This document shows positions 15,804 through 40,226 of a stretch of 40,226 nt of DNA, in pieces. The DNA is taken from the NCBI GenBank assembly GCA_035291705.1, contig DATDRM010000037.1, forward strand, positions 1-40,226, in the 5' to 3' direction. The stretch is from Anaerolineales bacterium (GTDB lineage: Bacteria; Chloroflexota; Anaerolineae; Anaerolineales; UBA4823). How positions within the stretch are numbered: position 1 is the first letter of the stretch; every line of letters begins with the position of its first letter. The notes beneath the pieces are model-generated. The model was given only the letters and a program-made list of their open reading frames with translations, was not told the origin of the DNA and searched no databases. The position numbers and the translations under genes are program-made.

Positions 15804-16778
15804 ATGCCCATCGAAATACCCATGGATAAGTGGCCTGGCGCTATCCGCACTATCACCTTGGGGGCGACGGCTGCGGAGGGTGGCACACGATCTCGGACGA
15901 TCACCGTCGGCGGCGAGAAATCCCTGCCATTCTTGCACTTCGAAAGCGAAATGCCCAACCCGCCGGCGATCGCGGTGGAGATCAAGGATCGCCGCCCGGA
16001 TGATTGGTCGCCCCTGCTGCTTAAAGCCTGGGGCGAGGCAGCCGAAAACCCGGTCAGCTGGGCGAAAGCCGCCGAAGCCGCGGGTGCAGACCTGATCCAA
16101 CTCTCCCTCAGCCTGACCGACGCGGCGGGCAACCCCAATACCCCCCAGGCCGCCGTGGCCGCCGTCAAGGCCACCCTCGCAGCCTGCGGCCTGCCTCTGC
16201 TCGTCTTCGGCCCCGGGCAGGCTGAAATGGATAATGAATTGCTGGTAGCTGTAGCCGAAGCGACCAAGGGTGAACGCCTGGTACTGGGCTTGTGCGAAGA
16301 CAAGAATTACCGCACCATCGTGGCCACCGCCATGGCAAACGGTCACCTGGTCAGCGCCCGCACCCCAATGGATGTCAACCTGGCCAAGCAACTCAATATT
16401 CTGATCAGCGATATGGGCTTTCCGCTCGATCGTATTCTGATGGACCCCACCACTGGCGCGCTGGGATACGGCATCGAATATGGCTTTTCGGCGATGGAGC
16501 GGTTGCGCCTGGCGGCCTTGCAAGGTGACTCGATGACCCAACTGCCGATGATCGTCACGCCCGGCTTCGAAGCCTGGAAGGCCAAGGAATCCAAAGTTGG
16601 CGAAGGCGTCCCTGAAGCCTGGGGAGACTGGCTGGGACGAGCGATCAACTGGGAGACTTTGACCGCCACTGCCCTCCTGGAGTCCGGTGCCGATATTTTG
16701 GTACTCCGCCACCCGGAGAGCGTCAGGCGCCTCAACACCGTGATCGCCGATCTGATGGCGGCACCTGTAACCGCATAG
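15804..16778 (+). CDS. acsD: Corrinoid iron-sulfur protein small subunit (CFeSP delta)
   Basis: 324-aa TIM-barrel-type sequence with a typical AcsD N-terminus (MPIEIP...WPGAIRTITLGAT). AAGGAG RBS. Between acsB and acsC. Confidence 0.9.
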   Translation: MPIEIPMDKWPGAIRTITLGATAAEGGTRSRTITVGGEKSLPFLHFESEMPNPPAIAVEIKDRRPDDWSPLLLKAWGEAAENPVSWAKAAEAAGADLIQLSLSLTDAAGNPNTPQAAVAAVKATLAACGLPLLVFGPGQAEMDNELLVAVAEATKGERLVLGLCEDKNYRTIVATAMANGHLVSARTPMDVNLAKQLNILISDMGFPLDRILMDPTTGALGYGIEYGFSAMERLRLAALQGDSMTQLPMIVTPGFEAWKAKESKVGEGVPEAWGDWLGRAINWETLTATALLESGADILVLRHPESVRRLNTVIADLMAAPVTA

Positions 16779-16779
16779 A

Positions 16780-16839
16780 GACGAACGACGAACGACCAAG
16801 GACCAAAGTAGAACAATCCTTCTTCCTTCGTCTTTCGTC
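16780..16839 (+). repeat. Inverted heptamer arrays forming a ~23-bp imperfect hairpin in the acsD-acsC spacer
   Basis: The 5' arm GACGAAC GACGAAC GACCAAG GA (16780-16802) pairs 19/23 with TCCTTCTTCCTTCGTCTTTCGTC (16817-16839). Loop is 14 nt and both arms have 7-nt periodicity. Confidence 0.65.
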
Positions 16840-16860
16840 ATTTGTCGATTGGAGAGAACC

Positions 16861-18204: not shown

Positions 18205-18239
18205 TTGCGATTTGCAAATTGCGGGATGCGAATTGCGAA
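18205..18239 (+). repeat. Five tandem heptamers TTGCGAT TTGCAAA TTGCGGG ATGCGAA TTGCGAA in the acsC-RACo spacer
   Basis: Exact 7-nt register read directly from the sequence. The last unit supplies the A of the ATG at 18239. Contains the palindrome ATTTGCAAAT. Confidence 0.6.
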
Positions 18240-20179
18240 TGGCTGAGCATACTGTCCACTTCGATGGAGTCTCTACCCCGGTGAGTGTCCCGACTGGCAC
18301 ACTCCTGGCCGAAGCCGCGCGCTCGGCCGGGGTAGAGCTGATGCAACCCTGTGGTGGACAGGGACGCTGCGGCCGGTGTGCGCTCCAGGTCATTTCCGGG
18401 AACGTCCGGCGGCGAAGCACCATCCGCCTATCTGAGGAGGATATCGCCCAGGGATTTGCCCTGGCCTGCCAGACCGTGATCGAGGGGGATATCTCCATCG
18501 CCATCCCGCCCCAAGAAAAAATCGAACGGCTCCTGACCAGCGACCGCACTGCCGGTGAGGTGACCGTCCCACCAGGCTACGACGCCACCTACGATCAGAC
18601 GATCCAAGCCGTAACGATCACCTTGACGCCCCCGGACATGAGCGACCAGCGGGACGACTGGAGCCGTCTCCAGACCACACTTCGTCAGCAAGCTGGTATT
18701 GAAGATATGCATGCCTCGCTTGGGCTGATGCGACATCTGAGCGATGTTCTTCGCCAAAGCGAGTGGTGCGTCTCTGCCATCCTGGACACGCAAGCCTGGG
18801 ACCGACCGGGATCGCCGCCGCGCCTGATCGACATTCGCCCTGGCTCGCCCCTGAGCGAGACGCCCTTGTGGGGAGCAGCCATCGACATCGGGACGACCAC
18901 GGTGACTGTATGGCTGGTTGACTTGTTGAGCGGCAAGGTAGCTGCCCAGGTGGCTCAATATAATAAGCAGATCGCCCGCGGCGAAGACGTGGTATCAAGA
19001 ATTATCTACGCCAGCAAAGACAGCGGCGGTGAACAGATGCGCTCCCTGGTGTTGGAGACGGTCAACGAGCTGCTCGGCCAGGCCTGTAAACGGGTCAAGT
19101 CAGACCCGCCACTCGACCCCAAGGACATCGTCAAAGCAAGCGTGGTTGGCAACAGCACCATGATCCATTTGTTGTTGGGCATCCCCGCCGGGAACATCCG
19201 CATGATGCCGTTCATCACGGCCGTGAATCAGATTCCCACCCTGACCGCAGGCGAGGTTGGGATAGACATTCATCCCGACGGGACGGTGGATTGTCTACCT
19301 GGGGTCGCCAGTTTTGTCGGAGCGGATATCACCGCTGGGGTACTATCTTCCGGGGTGGACGACGCCGAAAAGATCACCCTCTTCATGGACGTGGGAACCA
19401 ACGGGGAAATCGTGCTGGGCTCGCGCGAATGGCTGGTCACCTGCGCCTGCTCGGCCGGTCCGGCATTCGAAGGCGCGGGAGTCATGCACGGCATGCGCGC
19501 CACCAAGGGCGCCATCGAAGACGTGTGGATCAACGGTGACACATTCGATCCAACCTACCGCGTGATCGGGGGAGCTAGGCCGCATGGCCTGTGCGGAAGT
19601 GGATTGATCGCCCTGCTGGCAGAGATGTTCTTAACCGGCGTGGTCGACAAATCTGGCAACTTCAATTACCAATTGAATATCCCACGCATCCGTGAAGGCG
19701 ATCACGGCTGGGAGTATGTCATCGCCTGGGCAGCAGAGACGGGACACGGCAAGGACATCGCTATCACCCACGTGGATGTCGACAACCTGTTGCGCGCCAA
19801 GGCAGCCATTTACGCCGGCTTCACCATCCTCGCCAACAGTGTCGGCATCCCCCTGGAATGGGCAGAGCAAGTCCTGATTGGCGGCTCTTTTGGCAAGTAC
19901 ATCAACGTTGAAAAGGCGATCGATATCGGCCTGCTCCCGGATTTACCCTGGGAAAGATTTCAATTCCTGGGCAATACCGCGGTGCGCGGCGCTTACCTGG
20001 CTTTGTTAGATCGCCAGGCGCGGGCGCGCGTCAGGGAAATCGCCTCCCGGATGACTTACATAGAGTTGTCCGCGGATAACACATTCTATGAAGCGTTTAT
20101 GTCAGCACTGTTTTTACCGCATACTGACCTCTCCCGCTTTCCAACGGTAGAGGCAGCCATATCCAACAAGAAAATTTAA
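18239..20179 (+). CDS. acsV: Reductive activator of the corrinoid Fe-S protein (RACo; [2Fe-2S] ferredoxin + ASKHA ATPase)
   Basis: N-terminal plant-type ferredoxin motif CGGQGRCGRCAL...C, then an ASKHA-like body (AAIDIGTTTV, DVGTNGEIV). Sits between acsC and acsE. ATG 18239 preferred over TTG 18212. Confidence 0.85.
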   Translation: MAEHTVHFDGVSTPVSVPTGTLLAEAARSAGVELMQPCGGQGRCGRCALQVISGNVRRRSTIRLSEEDIAQGFALACQTVIEGDISIAIPPQEKIERLLTSDRTAGEVTVPPGYDATYDQTIQAVTITLTPPDMSDQRDDWSRLQTTLRQQAGIEDMHASLGLMRHLSDVLRQSEWCVSAILDTQAWDRPGSPPRLIDIRPGSPLSETPLWGAAIDIGTTTVTVWLVDLLSGKVAAQVAQYNKQIARGEDVVSRIIYASKDSGGEQMRSLVLETVNELLGQACKRVKSDPPLDPKDIVKASVVGNSTMIHLLLGIPAGNIRMMPFITAVNQIPTLTAGEVGIDIHPDGTVDCLPGVASFVGADITAGVLSSGVDDAEKITLFMDVGTNGEIVLGSREWLVTCACSAGPAFEGAGVMHGMRATKGAIEDVWINGDTFDPTYRVIGGARPHGLCGSGLIALLAEMFLTGVVDKSGNFNYQLNIPRIREGDHGWEYVIAWAAETGHGKDIAITHVDVDNLLRAKAAIYAGFTILANSVGIPLEWAEQVLIGGSFGKYINVEKAIDIGLLPDLPWERFQFLGNTAVRGAYLALLDRQARARVREIASRMTYIELSADNTFYEAFMSALFLPHTDLSRFPTVEAAISNKKI

Positions 20180-26700: not shown

Positions 26701-26856
26701 TACATCGATCCAGCTCTTTGCCAGGGGTGCGGCACCTGTACTGGTGAATGCCCAGCCAATGCCATCCAGTTGGTCAACTATACCGATGAGCAGATGATGC
26801 TGCACGCGATTGGAGGATTAGGTAGCTGGAAAGTGCCGGTGGCCAGTATTCAGTAA
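23710..26856 (+). CDS. Double HdrA-like flavo-iron-sulfur oxidoreductase (two fused HdrA-type units, no NAD(P)H module)
   Basis: Two FAD motifs (VVGGGIGGMRAALDLADAGLKVYLVE and VIGGGVAGMSTALAIADSGYDVHLVE). HdrA signatures FPQHDCVLC, LQCVGSRDQNNAFCSSICCMYATKEA and MIQCVRTKGAPDYCSRVCC. Several CxxCxxCxxxCP ferredoxin motifs. TTG 23704 is an alternative start and GGGGAGG lies upstream. Confidence 0.8.
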   Translation: MVKTRIIRGEPAATLVVGGGIGGMRAALDLADAGLKVYLVEQTPCLGGRVAQLGYMFPQHDCVLCRGTADHGYGCTRPSISPAYIQHNQHPNIEILTNTRILEVEGEAGDFTVSLRQEPRYVDPVHCTSCGLCAQVCPVELPNSYQLGMTMRKAAYKVAARATPDAYCIDKGPYCETCGECVKACPTGAIDLHEQPRLLTVEVGAIILALGFKVYDSSEMEELGHGRYPNVLAAMQYERLASRSGPTEGLITRPSDGQTPRSIAWLQCVGSRDQNNAFCSSICCMYATKEAILAKQRLGNEIGCSVFIMDERAFNKEYSAYFSTARQQHGIQYNHCRVSSIQEDPSTHDLILYSADPNGKLRQERFEMVVLATGLQPPESARDLAKNLGIELNQYGFCETDKFTPLQTTRPGVFVCGAFSSPKEIVETIIDASGAAAEVMRLLNDRLHTYTYSRAWPFLSTDDFRPEKDVSREPVRVGVFACSCGDTLNEVIDIPALLHQASQVPGVVHAEILDYACFPENQEYLRQRIQEADLNRVVVAACSNRTHEPLFQRTIRIAGLNPYLLEVVNLREQCAFVHQTQPQLANRKAIELVRVAVGRVSSAQPVNKDKHRCLPSALVIGGGVAGMSTALAIADSGYDVHLVERSEMLGGNLRNLYYVAEGYNPQRLLRDLVNRVRAHQRIKVYIRTEMINHSGHVGHFRSELRAQHNDHMEVITVEHGVTIVATGAQEAKGYPLLEFPLVITQQELEEKIIHHPEEIAALKHVVMIQCVRTKGAPDYCSRVCCTNTIKNAVRLKLFNPTCQVSVLYKNIVTYGFREEYYEEARKLGVVFIRYTDERPPEVLLEDNRLVVRAYDLSLDRWLRLPADLIPMSMSILPAEGTQELSRMLRVPISSEGFFEEAQMKLRPMDFMRDGIFLAGMAHYPKFIEESISHALAAAGRALTLLSQETLYLGGVIAQVDPNKCVGCLTCTRTCPFQIPQIIYLEGRTGVGELGGAAYIDPALCQGCGTCTGECPANAIQLVNYTDEQMMLHAIGGLGSWKVPVASIQ

Positions 26857-26919
26857 TTAGTTGCCAGTAGTCAGTGGGAAGAAAACTGACTACTAACTAC
26901 CGACTACTAATTACTAGAG
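26857..26919 (+). repeat. Inverted heptamer arrays / hairpin in the hdrA-like to mvhD spacer
   Basis: AGTAGTCAGT (26866-26875) pairs perfectly with ACTGACTACT (26885-26894) around a 9-nt loop. The stem extends via TAGTT/AACTA with a GCC bulge. The 3' side reads ACTGACT ACTAACT ACCGACT ACTAATT ACTAGAG, 5 units in 7-nt register. Confidence 0.65.
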
Positions 26920-32996: not shown

Positions 32997-34206
32997 AGTG
33001 TCTGCGCGCTCTCTCACGGTAACTGCAGAGCGGTTGCGCCGCTCAGAAATCTTCAGCGAACTATGCGATGAGGATTTAATCGCCATCGCCGAATTTTGTC
33101 GTGAGCAAACTTTCCACGAAGGTGAATTTGTGCTGGTGGAGGGCGCGCCCGCCGAGACCATGTTCATCGTAGAGCGCGGCAAACTGGCCCTGGAAAAGAA
33201 AATCCAGATCGGGCGGCACTCGACGCCGCGCAACGCGACCATCGGATACGTTGAACCAGGTAAGATCGCCGGCTTCTCTACCCTGACGATGCCCGATGAA
33301 TATTCCACCTCTGCCGTGTGCCTCGAACCCACCCGCGTCATTGCAGTCGATGGGAAAGCCTTGCGCGCCTTCCTGGAAACCCACCCGGCAGCCGGTCTCA
33401 AGGTGATGAGGATTCTAGCAATGCTGGTCGGCGGTCGCTATCGCAACGCAACCAACACCCTTACTTACTTCCTTTCCATTGTCTCGCACGAACTGCGTGG
33501 GCCTCTGGCAGCCATTGAGAACTATTTACAAACGATGCTCGGAGGCTTCGCCGGGGAGCTCAACCCAAAACAAAAACGCATGATAGAACGCAGCATCCTG
33601 CGCGTGGTCGACCTGCGCACCCTGATCGGCGACGTGGTCGACCTGGCGCGCATGCGCCCGGAACAGATCCAGGCCGATTTCGAATGGTGCAACCCAGGCG
33701 AAATAGGTACCGAATCGGTCGAGGATGCGCGCCTGGCAGCAGCCGAGAAAGGCATTCGCTTGATCATCGAACCGCCGCCCAAGTTCGAACCTATCGTTGG
33801 AGCGCGGCGACGATTACGGCAGGTTTTCACCAACCTGCTAAACAACGCCATAAAATTCTCACCCCCGGACAGCCGAGTGTTTTTTCGCGCCTGGTATGAA
33901 CAAGAAGCGGTCGTCTTAGAAGTCGAGGACGAAGGCCCGGGCATCCCCGAAGAAGACCTGCCCCATATCTTCAAAGATTTCTTCCGCGCCAGCAACGTCG
34001 AACAGACTCAAGGCGCGGGACTCGGCCTTTCGATCGCCATGAAAATCATTGAAGCTCACAATGGAAGAATCCTGGTCAGGAACTTGACTGGCGAGGCCGG
34101 CAAAACCGGCACCCGCTTTACTGTCTACATCCCCCGCGATCTGCTGACGCCTGAGATGCGTCGCAGGGAGTGGATAGCGACGGAAAGCGACCAGCTCAAA
34201 GGGTAG
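32989..34206 (+). CDS. Soluble sensor histidine kinase with an N-terminal CAP_ED (cNMP-binding-like) domain
   Basis: Crp-type beta-barrel pattern (IFSEL...F.EGEFVLVEGAPAETMFIVERGKLAL). H-box SIVSHELRGPL, N-box NLLNNAIKFSP, G1 EDEGPGIP, G2 GAGLGLSI. No TM segments. The start overlaps the receiver stop (ATGTTTGA). Confidence 0.85.
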   Translation: MFEVSARSLTVTAERLRRSEIFSELCDEDLIAIAEFCREQTFHEGEFVLVEGAPAETMFIVERGKLALEKKIQIGRHSTPRNATIGYVEPGKIAGFSTLTMPDEYSTSAVCLEPTRVIAVDGKALRAFLETHPAAGLKVMRILAMLVGGRYRNATNTLTYFLSIVSHELRGPLAAIENYLQTMLGGFAGELNPKQKRMIERSILRVVDLRTLIGDVVDLARMRPEQIQADFEWCNPGEIGTESVEDARLAAAEKGIRLIIEPPPKFEPIVGARRRLRQVFTNLLNNAIKFSPPDSRVFFRAWYEQEAVVLEVEDEGPGIPEEDLPHIFKDFFRASNVEQTQGAGLGLSIAMKIIEAHNGRILVRNLTGEAGKTGTRFTVYIPRDLLTPEMRRREWIATESDQLKG

Positions 34207-34226
34207 CTTCAGGTGAACTGAGAACG

Positions 34227-37200
34227 ATGAATAAGAGTGATTCGGCCATGATTAAATTAAACACAGCCGCACAAGTCGGCCCGGTCGGCGCCGTCCTGGT
34301 GGTCGGCGGCGGCATCGCTGGGATGCAAGCGGCGTTAGACCTGGCCGATCAGGGCTTCAAGGTATATCTCGTCGAGGAGAAATCGGCCATTGGCGGGCAC
34401 ATGGCCCAGCTCGACAAGACCTTCCCCACCAATGACTGCGCCATGTGCAACATCAGCCCCAAGCTGGTGGACACCGGGCGGCACACCAATATCGACATCC
34501 TCACCAATAGCGACGTGTTGAGCGTCGAGGGGCAAGCTGGCAATTTCACCGTGACCCTGCGTCGCAGGCCGCGCTACATCGATGTCGACAAGTGCGTGGG
34601 GTGTGGAGATTGTGCCGAGGTTTGCCCGGTTTCTATCCAGGACCTCTATGAAGAAGGATTGAAGGAGCGGAAAGCCGCTTATCGCCTCTACACCCAGGCA
34701 GTCCCCGCAGCTTACGCCATCGAGAAGCTCGGGATCGCTCCCTGCCGGGGGAGCTGCCCGGCCGGGCAACGCGCCCAGGGGTATATCGCCCTGATCGCCG
34801 AAGGCAGGTATCGCGAGGCACTGCGCGTCATCAAGGAGGATAACCCCTTCCCGAGCGTCTGTGGGCGAACCTGTCACCATCCATGCGAGGGCAGCTGCTC
34901 ACGTGCCCTGGTCGACCAGGCAGTGGGTATCATGTCGCTGAAGCGCTTCGTCGTCGACTACGCCCTGGCGTATGGACGGGAAAAGGTGGAACCAGTTCCC
35001 CGCACCCGTGCGGAATGGATTGCCGTGGTCGGTGCCGGGCCAGCCGGGTTGACCGCGGCGCATGACCTGGTGAAGCTCGGCTACGGGGTGACCGTCTACG
35101 AGGCGCTGCCGGTGGCCGGCGGCATGATGCGCGTCGGCATCCCGGCTCACCGCCTGCCTAAAGGCGTCCTTCAACAAGATATCGACGACATCCTTGCCCT
35201 GGGAGTGATGCTCAAGACAAACACCCCGGTTAAAGACCCGACGGCGCTGCTCAAGCAGGGATATGACGCAGTCTGCCTGGCGACCGGCATATCCTCCCCT
35301 GACCATTCCCTCGGCATCGACGGCGAGGAAGCGGACGGCGTTCTTTCAGCGGCCACCTTCTTACGTAAAATCAACCTCGGCGAGAAAATCACCATCGGAG
35401 AGCGTGTAGCCGTGGTGGGTGGTGGGATCACCGCCTTGGACACCGCGGCGGTTGCCAGGAGGTTGGGAGCGCAGGCGGTCTATCTGGTTCTCGACCGCCC
35501 ACGCGGTGAGCTGCCCGCTTACCATTGGGAGATGGCAGCAATTGAAGCGGAAGGCATCCATTTACACGAGCGCACCACTGCCATCCGCGTCCTGTCAGCC
35601 GGTGGTAAAGTAGTTGGCATTGAGCTCGCCCAAGCCAGCCAGGGTATAGAAGTGGATGCCAGCGGGCGGCGGCGTCCAAAGGTCAAAACTGGCTCGGAAT
35701 TCATCCTGGATGTCGACACGATCATCGGAACGGTGAGCCAGTTTTCAGATTTGAACTACCTGGATTCCCGCTTCGACGATCTGGCCGGCGATCCCCAGAC
35801 CCTGGCTAGCAAGGTCCCCGGTCTGTTCGTGGTCGGCGGCCGCAAGACCGGCGCCAGTTATATTATTGAAGCAGTGGCTCTCGGGCACCGGGTGGCCCGC
35901 TCTATCCACCAATTCCTGCAAAAACAACCGCTGGACCAGCCTGATCCACCGGCGCCACCCGTCGTGAAGTTCACCCGCCAGGAACTGGCCGAAAAAGTGG
36001 CAGCGGGTGAGATTCAACCGCAGGCGAGGATTGAACCCGCGCTGCTGCCAATGGAAGAGCGGGTGACCAGTTACCGCGAAGTTGTCCTCGGGCTGACTGA
36101 ACACCAGGCGCGGGCGGAAGCCCAACGCTGTCTGCAATGTGGCATCTGCTCAGAATGCCTGGCGTGCGTTTATGCTTGCGGAGTGAATGCCATCGACCAC
36201 AACATGGTGACGCGCCAGGAGCAGCTCAACGTGGGCGCAGTCATCCTGGCCCCTGGCTACCAGGTTTACCACGCCGAACTTTCAGAGGAATTTGGGTTTG
36301 GACGCTTCCCGAACGTAGTCACTGCCCTGCAGTTCGAACGCCTGTTATCAGCTTCCGGCCCGACGATGGGCCATATCAGCCGGCCTTCTGACCACAAAGC
36401 CCCCAGCCAGATCGCTTTCCTGCAGTGCGTGGGTTCCCGTGACCAGAGCCATGACTACTGCTCGGCGGTGTGTTGCATGTACGCCACCAAAGAAGCGGTG
36501 ATCGCCAAAGAACACCTGCCCGGCCTGGATGTGCATGTCTTTATGATGGATATGCGCGCTTTCTCCAAGGGATATTGGAGCTACTTCGAGCGAGCCCGCG
36601 ACCGCTATGGCGTCCACTACCACCGCAGCCGGATCAGCAGCTTATGGGAAGATGCTGAATCCCATGACCTGCTCCTGAATTATCTGGACGAGGGCGGGGT
36701 ACTGCACTCCGAACGCTTCGATATGGTTGTTCTTTCAGTGGGCATGGAGATCTCGGAATCCGTGCGCCAGATGGGACTTCGCCTGGGAATAGAGCTGGAT
36801 GAATATGGCTTCTGTCACACAACCCAATTCAACCCGTTAGAGACCAGCCGCCCCGGCATTTTCGCAGTTGGCCCATTTCGCGAGCCAAAGGATATCCCCG
36901 AATCTGTCGTCGAGGCTAGCGGAGCAGCCGCCACCAGCGCAGCCTTACTCGCTGGTGCACGTGGGTCGCTGACCCACATGCGTGAATACCCCGTTGAACG
37001 GGACGTTTCCGCAGAGCCACCGCGCATCGGGGTTTTCGTCTGTCATTGCGGTTCGAACATCGCCGGCTTTCTCGATGTGCCTGGCGTGGCCGGGTACGCG
37101 CGCCGGCTTCCCGATGTCGTTCACGCAGAAAATACGCTCTACGCCTGCTCTCAAGATTCGATTAAGTTAATTTCTCAGCGCATACAAGAGCTCAGCCTGA

Positions 37201-38762
37201 ACCGGGTCGTCGTGGCCAGTTGCTCGCCGCTCACTCACCAACCCCTATTCCAGGACAGCCTCCGGGCAGCAGGTTTGAACCCCTACCTGGTGGAAATGGC
37301 CAATATCCGCAACCAGTGCTCTTGGGTACACTCTGATGATTGGGAAGTAGCCACAGACAAGGCAAAAGAGCTGGTGCGTATGGCGGTAGCGCGGGCGGCC
37401 TTGCTCGCGCCGCAAACGACCATGACCGTCCCGGTGCAACGGGCCGCGTTGGTGGTCGGCGGTGGCGCAGCCGGAATGACCGCTGCCCTGGCGCTGGCCG
37501 AGCAGGGGTTCCCGGTACACCTGGTGGAAAAAGAGGCCGAATTGGGCGGTAACCTGCGGCAAATATTTACTTCGCTGCCACCTTCCGGAGTGGAGCAGCC
37601 CCAAGACCCGCAAGCCACCTTGCAACGCCTGGAAAGGTTAGTCCTTTCCCACCCAACTATTTCCTTGCACTTGAAGAGTAAAGTAGTTGCCACTTCCGGC
37701 TTCATGGGGAACTTCACCACCACGATCCTCCACGCCGATGGAGAGCGGGTTGCAGTAACCCATGGAGCGACGATCCTGGCAACCGGTGGCCAGGAATACC
37801 GCGGTCCTGAGTATGCCTACGGCACGCATCCGAAGGTCATCACGCAACAGAAGTTCGAGGCATTCCTTGCCAATCAGCCATCAGGGATCAAAAACATTAA
37901 ATCTATCGCCATGATCCTGTGCGTTGGGCCTGCGGAAAAATACTGTAGCCGCATCTGTTGCTCGGTCAGTCTCAAGAACGCCTTGCGGCTGAAGGAGATA
38001 AATCCGCAGGCGGAAGTCATGCTCCTTTATAAGGACATTCGCACCTACGGCTTTAAAGAAAGACTATATGCAGAGGCCCGCAAACACAACATCCTTTTCG
38101 CCCGCTACGACGACGCCCACCCTCCGCAAGTAGCGGCAGGGCAAGATGATATCTTGCCCTACGACGGTCTGACTGTTCGTGCTTGGGATGCCTCCCTGGA
38201 CAATTGGTTCACTTTGCAGCCGGATATCCTGGTGTTAAGCATGCCTATCGTCCCACGGCCTGAAACCGCTGATGTATCCAGGCTGTTCAAAGTCCCTACG
38301 GACAGGGATGGCTTCTTCCTCGAAGCCCACGTCAAGCTCCGCCCGGTGGATTTCTCCTCGGATGGGGTCTTCATGGCCGGCATGGCGCATTACCCAAAGC
38401 TGTTGGACGAAACCCTGATCCAGGCCCAGGCAGCCGCGGCGCGAGCGGGGCGTGTACTCAGCCGGGAGGCATTGACCGCCGGTGGACGGGTAGCTGTGGT
38501 GGATCCAAAATTGTGCACCGGCTGCCTGACTTGCGTGCGCATTTGCCCTTATGGCGTGCCAAAGATCCAGGCAGACCTGACTGGGGTAGGCGGCATCGTG
38601 GGTGCAGCCTTTATCGAAGCCGCCGTGTGCCTTGGCTGCGGCTCGTGTGTAGCCGAATGCCCGGCGCGCGCCATCCAGCTGATGCATTACACCGACGCGC
38701 AAATGAAGGCCAAGGTGGCGGCGTTATTCGTATCGTTGCCGGTTAATACGACCGAGGGTTGA
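34227..38762 (+). CDS. Second giant HdrA-like / GltD(NfnB)-like / HdrA-like fusion oxidoreductase (paralog of 27467..32095)
   Basis: Collinear with the upstream giant protein, with the same motifs in the same order ([35 protein letters not shown]...[81 protein letters not shown]; C-terminal ferredoxin motifs). The tracked start 34170 overlaps the kinase. ATG 34227 or 34248 is more likely. Confidence 0.85.
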   Translation: [1511 protein letters not shown]

Positions 38763-38791
38763 AGGAATTAGCAGATCATGAACAGGTCCAT

Positions 38792-39205
38792 ATGAATGCG
38801 CCAAAGTTGCAGATCATCAGCTATTGCTGTGAACACTGCGCCTACGCAGCTGCGGACCTGGCTGGGGGGCTCCGCCTGCAGTACCCGCCAGTCATCAAGA
38901 TCGTCCTGCTGCCCTGCACTGGCAAGCTAGATTCATTGATGGTGCTCCAGGCCCTGGAAGACGGCGCGGACGGTGTGATGGTGGCAGGCTGACTGCCTGG
39001 CGACTGTCATTACCAGTTAGGTAATGCCAACGCCAGACGCCGGATAAAGCGACTTAAAACATTGCTGGCCGAAATTGGCCTTGAGCCAGGGCGGGTGCGC
39101 ATGTTCAACCTGTCGTCGGCCATGGCGGGCGAGTTTGTTGCGGCGGCAAAAGACATGACGGAAACTATCGAAGATCTGGGGTCAAACCCCTTAAGGAAAG
39201 TATGA
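38792..39205 (+). CDS. mvhD: MvhD-like selenoprotein, in-frame UGA (38990-38992) read as selenocysteine
   Basis: Track ORF 38759..38992 stops at TGA. Continuing in frame gives ...GADGVMVAG-U-LPGDCHYQLGNANARRRIKRLKTLLAEIGLEPGRVRMFNLSSAMAGEF...GSNPLRKV, collinear with both other MvhD copies. The 3' half is missed by the track, which reports only an antisense shadow ORF 39010..39258. Confidence 0.8.
38997..39036 (+). promoter_or_regulatory. SECIS-like stem-loop 4 nt downstream of the UGA
   Basis: CTGGCG-ACTGT-CATTACC-AGTTA-GGTAATG-CCAA-CGCCAG, with a 6-bp outer stem, a 7-bp inner stem and a 5-nt apical loop. Confidence 0.6.
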
Positions 39206-39231
39206 AGGCTGAAGGCTGAAGGATGAAGGAT
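39204..39231 (+). repeat. Four tandem heptamers GAAGGCT GAAGGCT GAAGGAT GAAGGAT (left arm)
   Basis: Exact 7-nt register overlapping the mvhD stop codon. Reverse complement of the array at 39608-39635. Confidence 0.75.
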
Positions 39232-39246
39232 GATAGCTGAAATTAA

Positions 39247-39603
39247 ATGAATGAGCAAGATTTGAAAGTGAGGACCAAGAGCTTCGCGTTGATGGTGATC
39301 AAGCTTTACAGTATGTTACCCAAAACAACAGTGGCACAAGTTCTTGGCAAGCAAGTCTTGCGATCCGGCACATCGGTTGGAGCTCAATATCGAGAAGCAC
39401 AACGGGCGAAGTCTGATGCCGATTTCATAAACAAGATCGAAGGGAGCTTACAAGAACTAGAAGAAACAGCTTACTGGTTAGAACTTATTGAAGAAGCCGG
39501 TATCATATCAGAAGACAAGTTGGCGTTACTACTAAAGGAAACTAATGAACTTACGGCTATATTCGTCTCAATCGTTAGAAAAGTTAAGACTAAAAGAAGG
39601 TAA
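39247..39603 (+). CDS. Four-helix-bundle protein (23S rRNA intervening-sequence protein / Avd-like family)
   Basis: 118 aa with the family-typical pattern K.F.L.V..L...LPK......LG.Q..RSGTSVGA.Y.EA.RA.S..DF..K......EL.ET.YWLEL. Visibly more AT-rich than all flanking genes. Confidence 0.85.
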   Translation: MNEQDLKVRTKSFALMVIKLYSMLPKTTVAQVLGKQVLRSGTSVGAQYREAQRAKSDADFINKIEGSLQELEETAYWLELIEEAGIISEDKLALLLKETNELTAIFVSIVRKVKTKRR

Positions 39604-39607
39604 CCGC

Positions 39608-39635
39608 ATCCTTTATCCTTCATCCCTCATCCTTC
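39608..39635 (+). repeat. Four tandem heptamers ATCCTTT ATCCTTC ATCCCTC ATCCTTC (right arm, inverse of 39204-39231)
   Basis: ATCCTTC is the reverse complement of GAAGGAT. About 24 of 28 positions can pair with the left arm, counting G-U. Confidence 0.75.
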
Positions 39636-39650
39636 CTTCGGAGGTGGATC

Positions 39651-40226
39651 ATGATTGTTGCTGAACAAAAGACTTTAGAAGAGATTAAATCCCTGGTCGG
39701 GAGTGCCAAGAACGTATTGGTTATGGGCTGTGGCACGTGCGTGACGGTGTGCTTTGCCGGCGGTTCGCGCGAGGCCGCCATCCTATCCTCATCCCTGCGC
39801 ATGACGTCCAAGCTCGACGGCGCCCCGAAAAATGTCACTGACGTGACCGTCCAACGCCAGTGTGAATGGGAATACCTGGATGCGGTCGCCGAGCAGGTAA
39901 AAGAAGCGGACGTCGTGCTTTCGTTAGGCTGTGGGATCGGGGTGCAGGCGATCGCCGAACACTTTCCCAACACCTGGGTGGTGCCAGGATTGAATACCAA
40001 GTTCCTGGGGCTGCCCCTTGAGCAAGGGATATGGGCAGAGCGCTGCGCAGCGTGCGGTGACTGCATCCTCGGCCTGACCGGAGGTATCTGCCCGATCGCC
40101 CGCTGCTCCAAATCGCTGCTCAACGGCCCGTGCGGCGGCTCAGAGGACGGCCATTGCGAGATCAGTCCGGAAACCCCCTGCGCCTGGCAGTTGATTTATG
40201 ACCGGTTGAGCAGTCTGGGCAAGCTG
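39651..40226 (+). CDS. metV: MetV-like protein (methylenetetrahydrofolate reductase C-terminal-domain / zinc-ribbon FeS subunit), 3'-truncated by window edge
   Basis: Not in the ORF track because there is no stop before the window end. My translation reads MIVAEQKTLEEIKSLVGSAKNVLVMGCGTCVTVCFAGG...CAACGDCILGLTGGICPIARCSKSLLNGPCGGSEDGHCE...CAWQLIYDRL. GGAGGTG RBS lies 4 nt upstream. The antisense ORF 39620..40123 is its shadow. Confidence 0.8.
   Translation, partial: MIVAEQKTLEEIKSLVGSAKNVLVMGCGTCVTVCFAGGSREAAILSSSLRMTSKLDGAPKNVTDVTVQRQCEWEYLDAVAEQVKEADVVLSLGCGIGVQAIAEHFPNTWVVPGLNTKFLGLPLEQGIWAERCAACGDCILGLTGGICPIARCSKSLLNGPCGGSEDGHCEISPETPCAWQLIYDRLSSLGKL

Follow-up and report, generated by a model that had tools for sequence, protein, structure and literature searches.

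A 40,226-nucleotide (nt) stretch of DNA from an uncultured Anaerolineales bacterium (contig DATDRM010000037.1, which we call the window) carries, between the acetogenesis genes mvhD and metV, a small gene of the four-helix-bundle family PF05635 that sits between two inverted arrays of heptamers. We read positions 39194-39639 as a selfish-looking, intervening-sequence-like cassette, made of the gene and its own arrays (the arms) and gained as one unit, and we give this reading a probability of about 0.6. Modules of this kind are otherwise found in 23S rRNA, where the protein is called S23p. To our knowledge, such intervening sequences with an open reading frame (ORF) have been a puzzle since the 1990s, and their origin, their mobility and the role of S23p are unknown. 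The locus adds two observations: in a strain that is identical elsewhere, an empty allele without arms, and, at one and the same junction, empty sites of both kinds (with and without a hairpin). The host of the intervening-sequence module is here an ordinary operon in an uncultured member of the Anaerolineae, the protein is under selection, and the question of whether the arms are part of the element is answered with a yes at this locus. Two further questions become testable: whether the abundant heptamer hairpins of bacterial genomes are derivatives of such cassettes, and whether the four-helix-bundle protein recognizes its own repeats.

A gene in the loop of a long hairpin

The source genome is metagenome-assembled (Chloroflexi/Anaerolineae; 3.3 Mb, 372 contigs, 83% complete, 55.8% GC). 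The ORF between the arms passes the curated cut-offs of both family models, PF05635 (E 6e-20; 71.9 bits, cut-off 33.8) and TIGR02436 (E 1.4e-25; 89.6 bits, cut-off 24), and matches a solved structure, PDB 2rld (E 7.7e-22). The nearest named protein relative comes from 'Chloroflexi bacterium RBG_19FT_COMBO_55_16'. An earlier interpretation of the window, made without database searches (the sequence-only reading), had assigned the gene to the 23S intervening-sequence family, and these matches bear it out.

On the left of the gene, Tandem Repeats Finder reports an array at 39203-39241 (period 7, 5.6 copies, unit TGAAGGC; TGAAGGM over the array), and on the right an array at 39607-39635 (period 7, 4.1 copies, unit CATCCTT; CATCCYT over the array). 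The two strands of the closing stem (29 nt, 86% complementary) are separated by 374 nt, and the arms reach beyond the stem to both ends of the cassette. The flanks of the ORF have an inverted-repeat score of 19.0. Across 20,000 intervals placed at random in this genome with the same geometry, the mean is 5.57 (standard deviation 1.05) and the maximum 15. The score of 19.0 is also the top value among the genome's 4,365 mechanical ORFs of 90-160 amino acids (aa). The stem is paired in both the minimum-free-energy and the centroid fold, and the arm duplex has a predicted energy of -39.4 kcal/mol. GC content falls to 0.385-0.45 across 39200-39699, versus 0.54-0.655 on either side, and GC at third codon positions (GC3) is 0.43 in the ORF versus 0.73 in metV.

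The bracketing of the gene by inverted heptamer arrays and the lower GC content of the loop had both been noticed in the sequence-only reading and hold up under these controls. The short-loop heptamer hairpins that it had seen in other spacers of the window were likewise recovered (26846-26917 and 16776-16845). Its location of the element between mvhD and metV stands, but the boundaries needed correction, as the stop codon of mvhD lies within the first heptamer and the arms extend to 39194 and 39639 (table 1).

Table 1. Coordinates of the cassette, its neighbours and the PF05635 cassettes of the genome. Positions are those of the window unless a contig (C) is named.
Feature	Position	Strand	Remarks
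hdrA-like gene	34170-38762		first in order before mvhD
mvhD (FlpD family)	38759-39205	+	PF02662, E 2.8e-45; read through in-frame TGA 38990-38992
mvhD stop codon TGA	39203-39205	+	within first heptamer of left arm (from translation)
whole cassette, arms and gene	39194-39639	+	446 nt; the stretch missing from the empty allele
left arm	39194-39241	+	purine-rich TGAAGGM heptamer array (Tandem Repeats Finder, 5.6 copies); forms an inverted-repeat pair with the right arm
closing stem, 5' strand	39204-39232	+	29 nt, 86% complementary
four-helix-bundle gene (PF05635 / TIGR02436)	39247-39603	+	118 aa; weak Shine-Dalgarno, AT-rich
right arm	39607-39639	+	CATCCYT heptamers, reverse complement of left arm; stem 3' strand 39607-39635
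metV Shine-Dalgarno GGAGGTG	39640-39646	+	intact, directly after insert; in the empty allele within the last mvhD codons
metV (methylene-tetrahydrofolate reductase C-terminal domain protein)	39651-40226	+	PF12225, E 2.9e-33; continues past window end
PF05635 cassette, C37 (window)			unit TGAAGGM; between mvhD and metV
PF05635 cassette, C91			unit GCGGTTA
PF05635 cassette, C219			unit GACGRAN
PF05635 cassette (L002)	C362:340-654		unit GAACGTTY (8-mer); exactly between dnaK and dnaJ

Empty alleles without arms or hairpin

Close empty alleles were located by searching for the predicted C-terminus of MvhD. The search returned an MvhD protein (P0122, ending ...GLGPNPLGGGS) on five Joint Genome Institute (JGI) contigs from five samples (L153-L157), and a Logan contig (run X1) likewise joins the end of mvhD straight to the metV Shine-Dalgarno. 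L153-L157 have the junction sequence ...CCATTA|GGAGGTGGATCATG, where the stop codon of mvhD and the start codon of metV overlap (ATGA), and neither arms nor a hairpin are present. Compared with these alleles, the indel corresponds to the arms plus the gene (window 39194-39639, 446 nt) and is free of target-site duplication; a 3-nt TTA microhomology at the junction was seen only in L039. The insert supplies the last three codons of mvhD (RKV), whereas mvhD in the empty allele ends ...NPLGGGS. Because the empty allele has neither arms nor hairpin, the unit of gain or loss is the arms together with the gene. One empty contig shares its metagenome with a copy of the window. A deletion artefact of assembly was considered and rejected, given that the empty allele is found in five samples and is 2-9% divergent from the filled allele around the site.

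The ATGA overlap at mvhD-metV recurs in several clades (L074, L075, L120, L098, L132, L087, L142), and the cassette was not found in any of 21 other genera; the empty state therefore looks ancestral and the cassette derived. Other genera of the same family and order offered no close empty site. A metagenome scan with MetV recovered, besides one copy of the window, only relatives of at most 88% identity. The sequence-only reading had predicted an empty site with a short-loop hairpin. Such sites do exist in another clade (L081, L090, L093; see below), but the nearest empty alleles, L153-L157, are hairpin-free.

An old polymorphism and a selected gene

One empty allele (allele A, L154 plus L153) matches the window with 100% identity across 36400-38399 and across the 1.6 kb downstream of 40200, and with only 91-99% identity within 38400-40199. 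The divergent stretch is a ~1.8-kb recombination patch centred on the indel. Another empty contig, L155, combines window-like with L030-like segments in a mosaic, with junction-proximal sequence as in allele A. In a flank tree of 2,145 columns (mvhD, metV and metF, with the cassette columns left out), the window pairs with empty L153 (support 95/99) and empty L155 pairs with filled L030/31/33 (support 88/100); a grouping of all filled alleles into one clade is rejected by the approximately unbiased (AU) test (p 6e-38). What these results show is an old presence/absence polymorphism that has been shuffled by homologous recombination, not a fresh transposition.

Cassettes orthologous to that of the window occur at the same mvhD-metV junction on metagenome contigs L029-L042. 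Their proteins are 95% and 91% identical to the window's, the cassettes as a whole 89-92%, and the junctions are the same. Perfect units in the right arm number 4 or 5 within one population, and the left arm is more degenerate in L029-L038, yet the arm duplexes hold at -35 to -43 kcal/mol despite their differing sequences. Between the ORF and its orthologues, the ratio of non-synonymous to synonymous divergence (dN/dS) is 0.10-0.15 and dS is 0.33-0.39; for comparison, dN/dS is 0.04-0.05 in metV and 0.11 in mvhD. From these values, the gene is under purifying selection, and the cassette is as old as the split between the lineages of the window and L029-L042. Within this group, L039-L042 have a premature TAG stop at codon 97 of the gene while their arms are still pairable (-42.6 kcal/mol), which may be the onset of gene decay within an intact hairpin.

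Arms and gene across the genome and the order

The genome carries four PF05635 genes, and all four lie between inverted tandem arrays, each with a different unit (table 1). A genome-wide search for inverted pairs of period-7 or period-8 arrays gave nine gene-less pairs with loops of 0-23 nt and four pairs with loops of 365-472 nt. The fourth long-loop pair (C275:182-654, L005) has 8-mer arms and holds a gene that belongs not to PF05635 but to the GxxExxY family (TIGR04256 / PF13366). This second type of cargo encodes a PD-(D/E)XK-like protein of 124 aa and occupies a loop of 384 nt between inverted arrays of 8-mers (AGGAAGCC and the complement); the family is present in 94 of 151 genomes of the order, this one included, with up to 16 copies each. 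Among PF13366 loci, 20 of 28 are armed above the control threshold, with units of about 8 bases (e.g. CACAGAGN, CGCAAAGN, CACGAATN) that are unlike those of PF05635. As the two unrelated cargos have separate arm repertoires, these data argue for arms as a part of the cassette and against a shared pool of hairpins that serve as targets.

A wider survey covered 300 other genomes of the order. Close homologues of the window protein (58-71% identity) occur in families f4, f15, f10, f7 and f12, and are absent from the 31 genomes of the window's own family. Flank inverted repeats that score above the 99th percentile of the same-geometry control are present at 26 of the 29 homologous loci. The cognate arms of 36 cassettes pair better than non-cognate ones (16.7 versus 10.9, permutation p < 1e-4). 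On the protein tree, the class of the repeat unit (AAGGATG, AATGCAG, AATTCAG, AAAGGAK, TAGATTT and five others) changes 10 times, where 9 is the minimum for 10 classes and 19-21 changes result when the labels are shuffled. A vertical series of loci at one host site (L045, L058, L059 versus L055, L056, L061) has the unit switched in both arms together. The repeat unit thus tracks the protein tree through at least five host families and differing sites. The gene-in-stem-loop layout described by the sequence-only reading recurs, then, at the three other PF05635 genes of the genome, in the orthologous cassettes of relatives and at most homologous loci of the order; neither an armless ORF at the relatives' locus nor a stemless copy in this genome was found. 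A search of 20 homologous loci against Rfam gave no match. The orientation of the upstream neighbour, called by the longest open frame, was co-directional at 10 loci, opposite at 1 and unclear at 18, the method being ambiguous in these GC-rich genomes.

Gene-less hairpins and the same spacer in other clades

Heptamer arrays also exist without a gene. Further gene-less hairpins or arrays lie in operon spacers at window 18205-18240, C22:1409-1469 and C219:3991-4065. In several of the gene-less arrays, the opening repeat unit takes in the stop codon of the upstream gene, and the ribosome-binding site of the next gene follows directly on the array. TGAAGGA, the unit of the window cassette, also builds the C22 hairpin, and the hairpin on C219 shares its unit with the cassette 4.5 kb away on that contig.

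Exact TGAAGGA 16-mers occur in 50 of 301 genomes (f4 7/7, f15 18/31, f10 9/23, f7 8/32), and unit and window-type protein subfamily co-occur at the family level (f4, f15, f10, f7). In a hand tally, protein and array occur together in 34 genomes, the protein alone in 29, the array alone in 16 and neither of them in 222; the tally is descriptive, kin genomes not being independent. Some genomes have 50-100 TGAAGGA arrays yet 1-5 gene copies (e.g. G070, where 5 protein matches stand against 90 exact 16-mers). Summed contig depth over the left arm (region 39210-39260) is ~7,000 in metagenomes of soil and sediment, versus ~26 over the cassette body. Depth over the TGAAGGA array is ~1,800 even in X5, the smallest of runs X1, X3, X4 and X5. 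Many metagenome contigs consist of an arm, a 15-30-nt loop and an arm. The TGAAGGA hairpin is extremely common in the community.

The same spacer was compared across 98 mvhD-metV loci, drawn from genomes as well as metagenomes. Filled loci number five, of which four belong to the window clade; the fifth, L078, lies in a separate clade (support 97), and its protein is 71% identical to the window's and its arms are also TGAAGGA arrays. L078 is thus a second hit on this spacer. In L081, L090 and L093, which form the sister group of the L078 subclade, a 76-nt spacer consists of a gene-less short-loop TGAAGGA hairpin that has inner-arm motifs in common with L078. Within the L078 subclade, L099 retains a single AAGGATGAAG, and a third branch of the clade is nearly spacer-free (ATGA overlap in L120, a 2-nt gap in L123). 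In both filled clades, the end of the insert directly abuts the GGAGG of metV. Selection can explain this shared position without targeting, because it is about the only harmless position in the junction.

The sequence-only reading had proposed long hairpins, already in place, as targets: the gene, alone or within a cassette, would insert into their loops, and the arms would be those of the target site. Several of the observations above fit: gene-less hairpins abound in the genome (one of them, on C22, with the window's unit) and in the community, arrays can far outnumber gene copies, and in L081, L090 and L093 a short-loop hairpin fills the very spacer that is occupied by a cassette in the sister group. 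However, the nearest empty alleles have neither arms nor hairpin, the arm unit follows the protein tree over differing sites, the GxxExxY cargo has units of its own, and four copies in one genome have four units. We consider hairpin targeting unlikely, and this part of the earlier interpretation is not upheld.

How the cassette may sit in its operon, and what speaks against it

Under the cassette reading, the host site would be an mvhD-metV junction that was translationally coupled through the ATGA overlap before insertion. The insert lies directly 5' of the metV Shine-Dalgarno and leaves the ribosome-binding site whole, and its first heptamer provides mvhD with a new stop codon. In the predicted operon transcript, the arms would pair into a stem of ~26 bp closing a body of 376 nt, and this stem would bring the mvhD stop beside the metV Shine-Dalgarno. 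In this way, the locus illustrates how an insert can lodge within a translationally coupled gene pair without destroying the pair. By analogy with ORF-bearing 23S intervening sequences, the stem is a likely substrate of RNase III, for which the genome carries a gene (C253:4816-5190). The protein is functional, judged by the purifying selection on its gene; arms and gene are inherited, and diverge, together, and the cassette passes among strains via homologous recombination of flanking host DNA. The cassette encodes no recognizable enzyme for its own insertion, and defence-system models (PADLOC) gave no match.

A more tentative extension, which we regard as possible though doubtful, concerns the protein itself. 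In solved relatives, the four-helix-bundle protein forms a pentameric ring. It may recognize its own heptamer arrays, one unit per subunit. Gene and arrays would then be a self-specified repeat system built on a non-enzymatic fold, with the cassette as master copy, the gene-less hairpins as dependants and the 23S intervening sequences as a special landing place. We know of no catalytic activity for PF05635.

Several points weigh against the cassette reading. Arms and gene are physically linked, so their co-divergence is no proof of a functional interaction. The fold of the whole cassette is little better than that of shuffled sequences (z -1.75). A G-U wobble test of sense versus antisense arm pairing leaned weakly towards the sense strand (21 versus 15, p 0.03) and was not used as evidence, its rows being related and its flanks long. 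No de novo insertion was seen, and allelic replacement accounts for the filled/empty difference of near-identical strains. One precise deletion in the distant past is formally possible as the alternative origin of the empty alleles. Finally, the gene-less hairpin in the L078 clade is equally compatible with the loss of a gene from a cassette and the gain of a gene into a hairpin.

Other explanations

The insert could be a transposon-like element, akin to MITEs (miniature transposable elements with inverted repeats), in which the arms are terminal inverted repeats (TIRs) for a transposase supplied in trans and the gene is a passenger. Its inverted repeats extend to the very ends, it is polymorphic for presence and absence, and its AT-rich body looks foreign. 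On the other hand, target-site duplications are missing (the TTA microhomology is limited to L039), and homologous recombination is the only transfer observed. Moreover, arm sequence differs per genomic copy, so one transposase could not serve all of them. A transposon of this type is distinctly unlikely.

In a more conservative explanation, the gene is an ordinary resident accessory gene with a regulatory or mRNA-stabilizing hairpin; there would be no mobility, and patchiness would result from vertical descent and repeated loss. Purifying selection, a long residence at the site (dS is about equal to that of the flanks) and the similarly built gene-less hairpins in many operon spacers are all in keeping with it. 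But, of the 98 loci, only those of two separate clades have the cassette at the junction, the empty states agree with the ATGA overlap that is widespread, and GC3 departs from that of metV. In addition, the closest protein relatives are in other families at unrelated sites, with none among the 31 own-family genomes. We judge it improbable that residence alone accounts for the locus.

Finally, a role as an Avd-type accessory protein of a diversity-generating retroelement (DGR), a link drawn in the sequence-only reading, was rejected as a most remote prospect: the fold family is the same and the C91 paralogue has a weak match to DivGenRetAVD (31 bits, cut-off 80), but the window protein has no match to this model (NF033474), RVT_1 found no reverse transcriptase in the genome (83% complete), and the neighbours are hdrA, mvhD and metV.

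Comparison with known systems

The closest counterpart is the 23S intervening sequence of Coxiella burnetii (helix 45), which is 428 nt long, has a 28-bp stem and carries tandem heptamers before its S23p ORF (PMC4990558). It is cleaved by RNase III at the first repeat, and its ORF is reportedly in decay and probably lacks expression (PMC4990558). ORF-bearing 23S intervening sequences also occur in Leptospira, Brucella and Xanthomonas (Warrier et al. 2016, PMC4990558). The two elements have in common the protein family (S23p / PF05635), a near-equal size (428 versus 446 nt), a terminal stem of 26-28 bp that closes the element, a weak Shine-Dalgarno and an AT-rich body. In both, tandem heptamers stand just before the start codon in variable number (among strains in Coxiella; 4 or 5 right-arm units in the close relatives here). 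They differ in their hosts, an rRNA helix in one case and the protein-coding operon junction mvhD-metV in the other. They also differ in the state of the ORF, which is under purifying selection in the cassette. Cleavage by RNase III has been demonstrated for the Coxiella element, whereas for the cassette it is predicted by analogy. No 23S rRNA gene is assembled in this genome.

Gene-less arrays have counterparts as well. The GGGAATC arrays of Xanthomonas are intergenic pairs of convergent heptamer repeats (Rehm et al. 2015, PMC4692102), and intergenic heptanucleotide elements have been described in Geobacter metallireducens (PMC2700814). With about four 7-base units, often in inverted pairs between co-directional genes, they resemble the gene-less hairpins of this genome. 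However, the papers tie the arrays to no gene family, whereas the arrays here enclose a PF05635 gene and co-diverge with it.

At the level of organization, the cassette is also reminiscent of Ssn nucleases, small proteins framed by the NTS repeats on which they act (PMC11893778). As in Ssn/NTS and REP/RAYT, the repeat on both sides of the gene is also dispersed gene-free, and the type of repeat goes with the protein clade. Unlike in those systems, the arms are tandem heptamers instead of a single palindrome, and binding or cutting of arrays by PF05635 is putative. We found no description in the literature of operon-borne armed PF05635 or GxxExxY cassettes; the layout was found in print only for 23S rRNA intervening sequences.

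Neighbouring genes and minor observations

A promoter scan of 38700-40226 found no sigma-70-like promoter. An intrinsic terminator was rejected as an explanation of the hairpin: the right arm is followed by CCTTCGGAGG, and there is no terminator-like site at the arms.

The mvhD-metV spacer holds other inserts in other lineages. At 17 of the 98 loci (L008, L015, L022, L025, L026 and 12 metagenome loci), a gene of ~600 nt lies between mvhD and metV. Judged by its translation it is acetyltransferase-like, and L025 has two tandem copies. In other Anaerolineae (L101, L140, L129), the spacer contains very long hairpins of other heptamers; in L101, for example, the spacer measures 262 nt and its hairpin has about 13 units per arm, of AGTRATC type. 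The junction seems to draw heptamer arrays repeatedly.

The in-frame TGA of mvhD (context …VAG-TGA-LPGDCHY…, 38990-38992) can be called conserved because gene callers break mvhD there in all close relatives. The genome encodes a tRNA-Sec (anticodon TCA, C299:23759-23854). Given the conserved TGA and this tRNA, MvhD is probably a selenoprotein. A small hairpin (CATTACC…GGTAATG) lies ~20 nt past the in-frame TGA.

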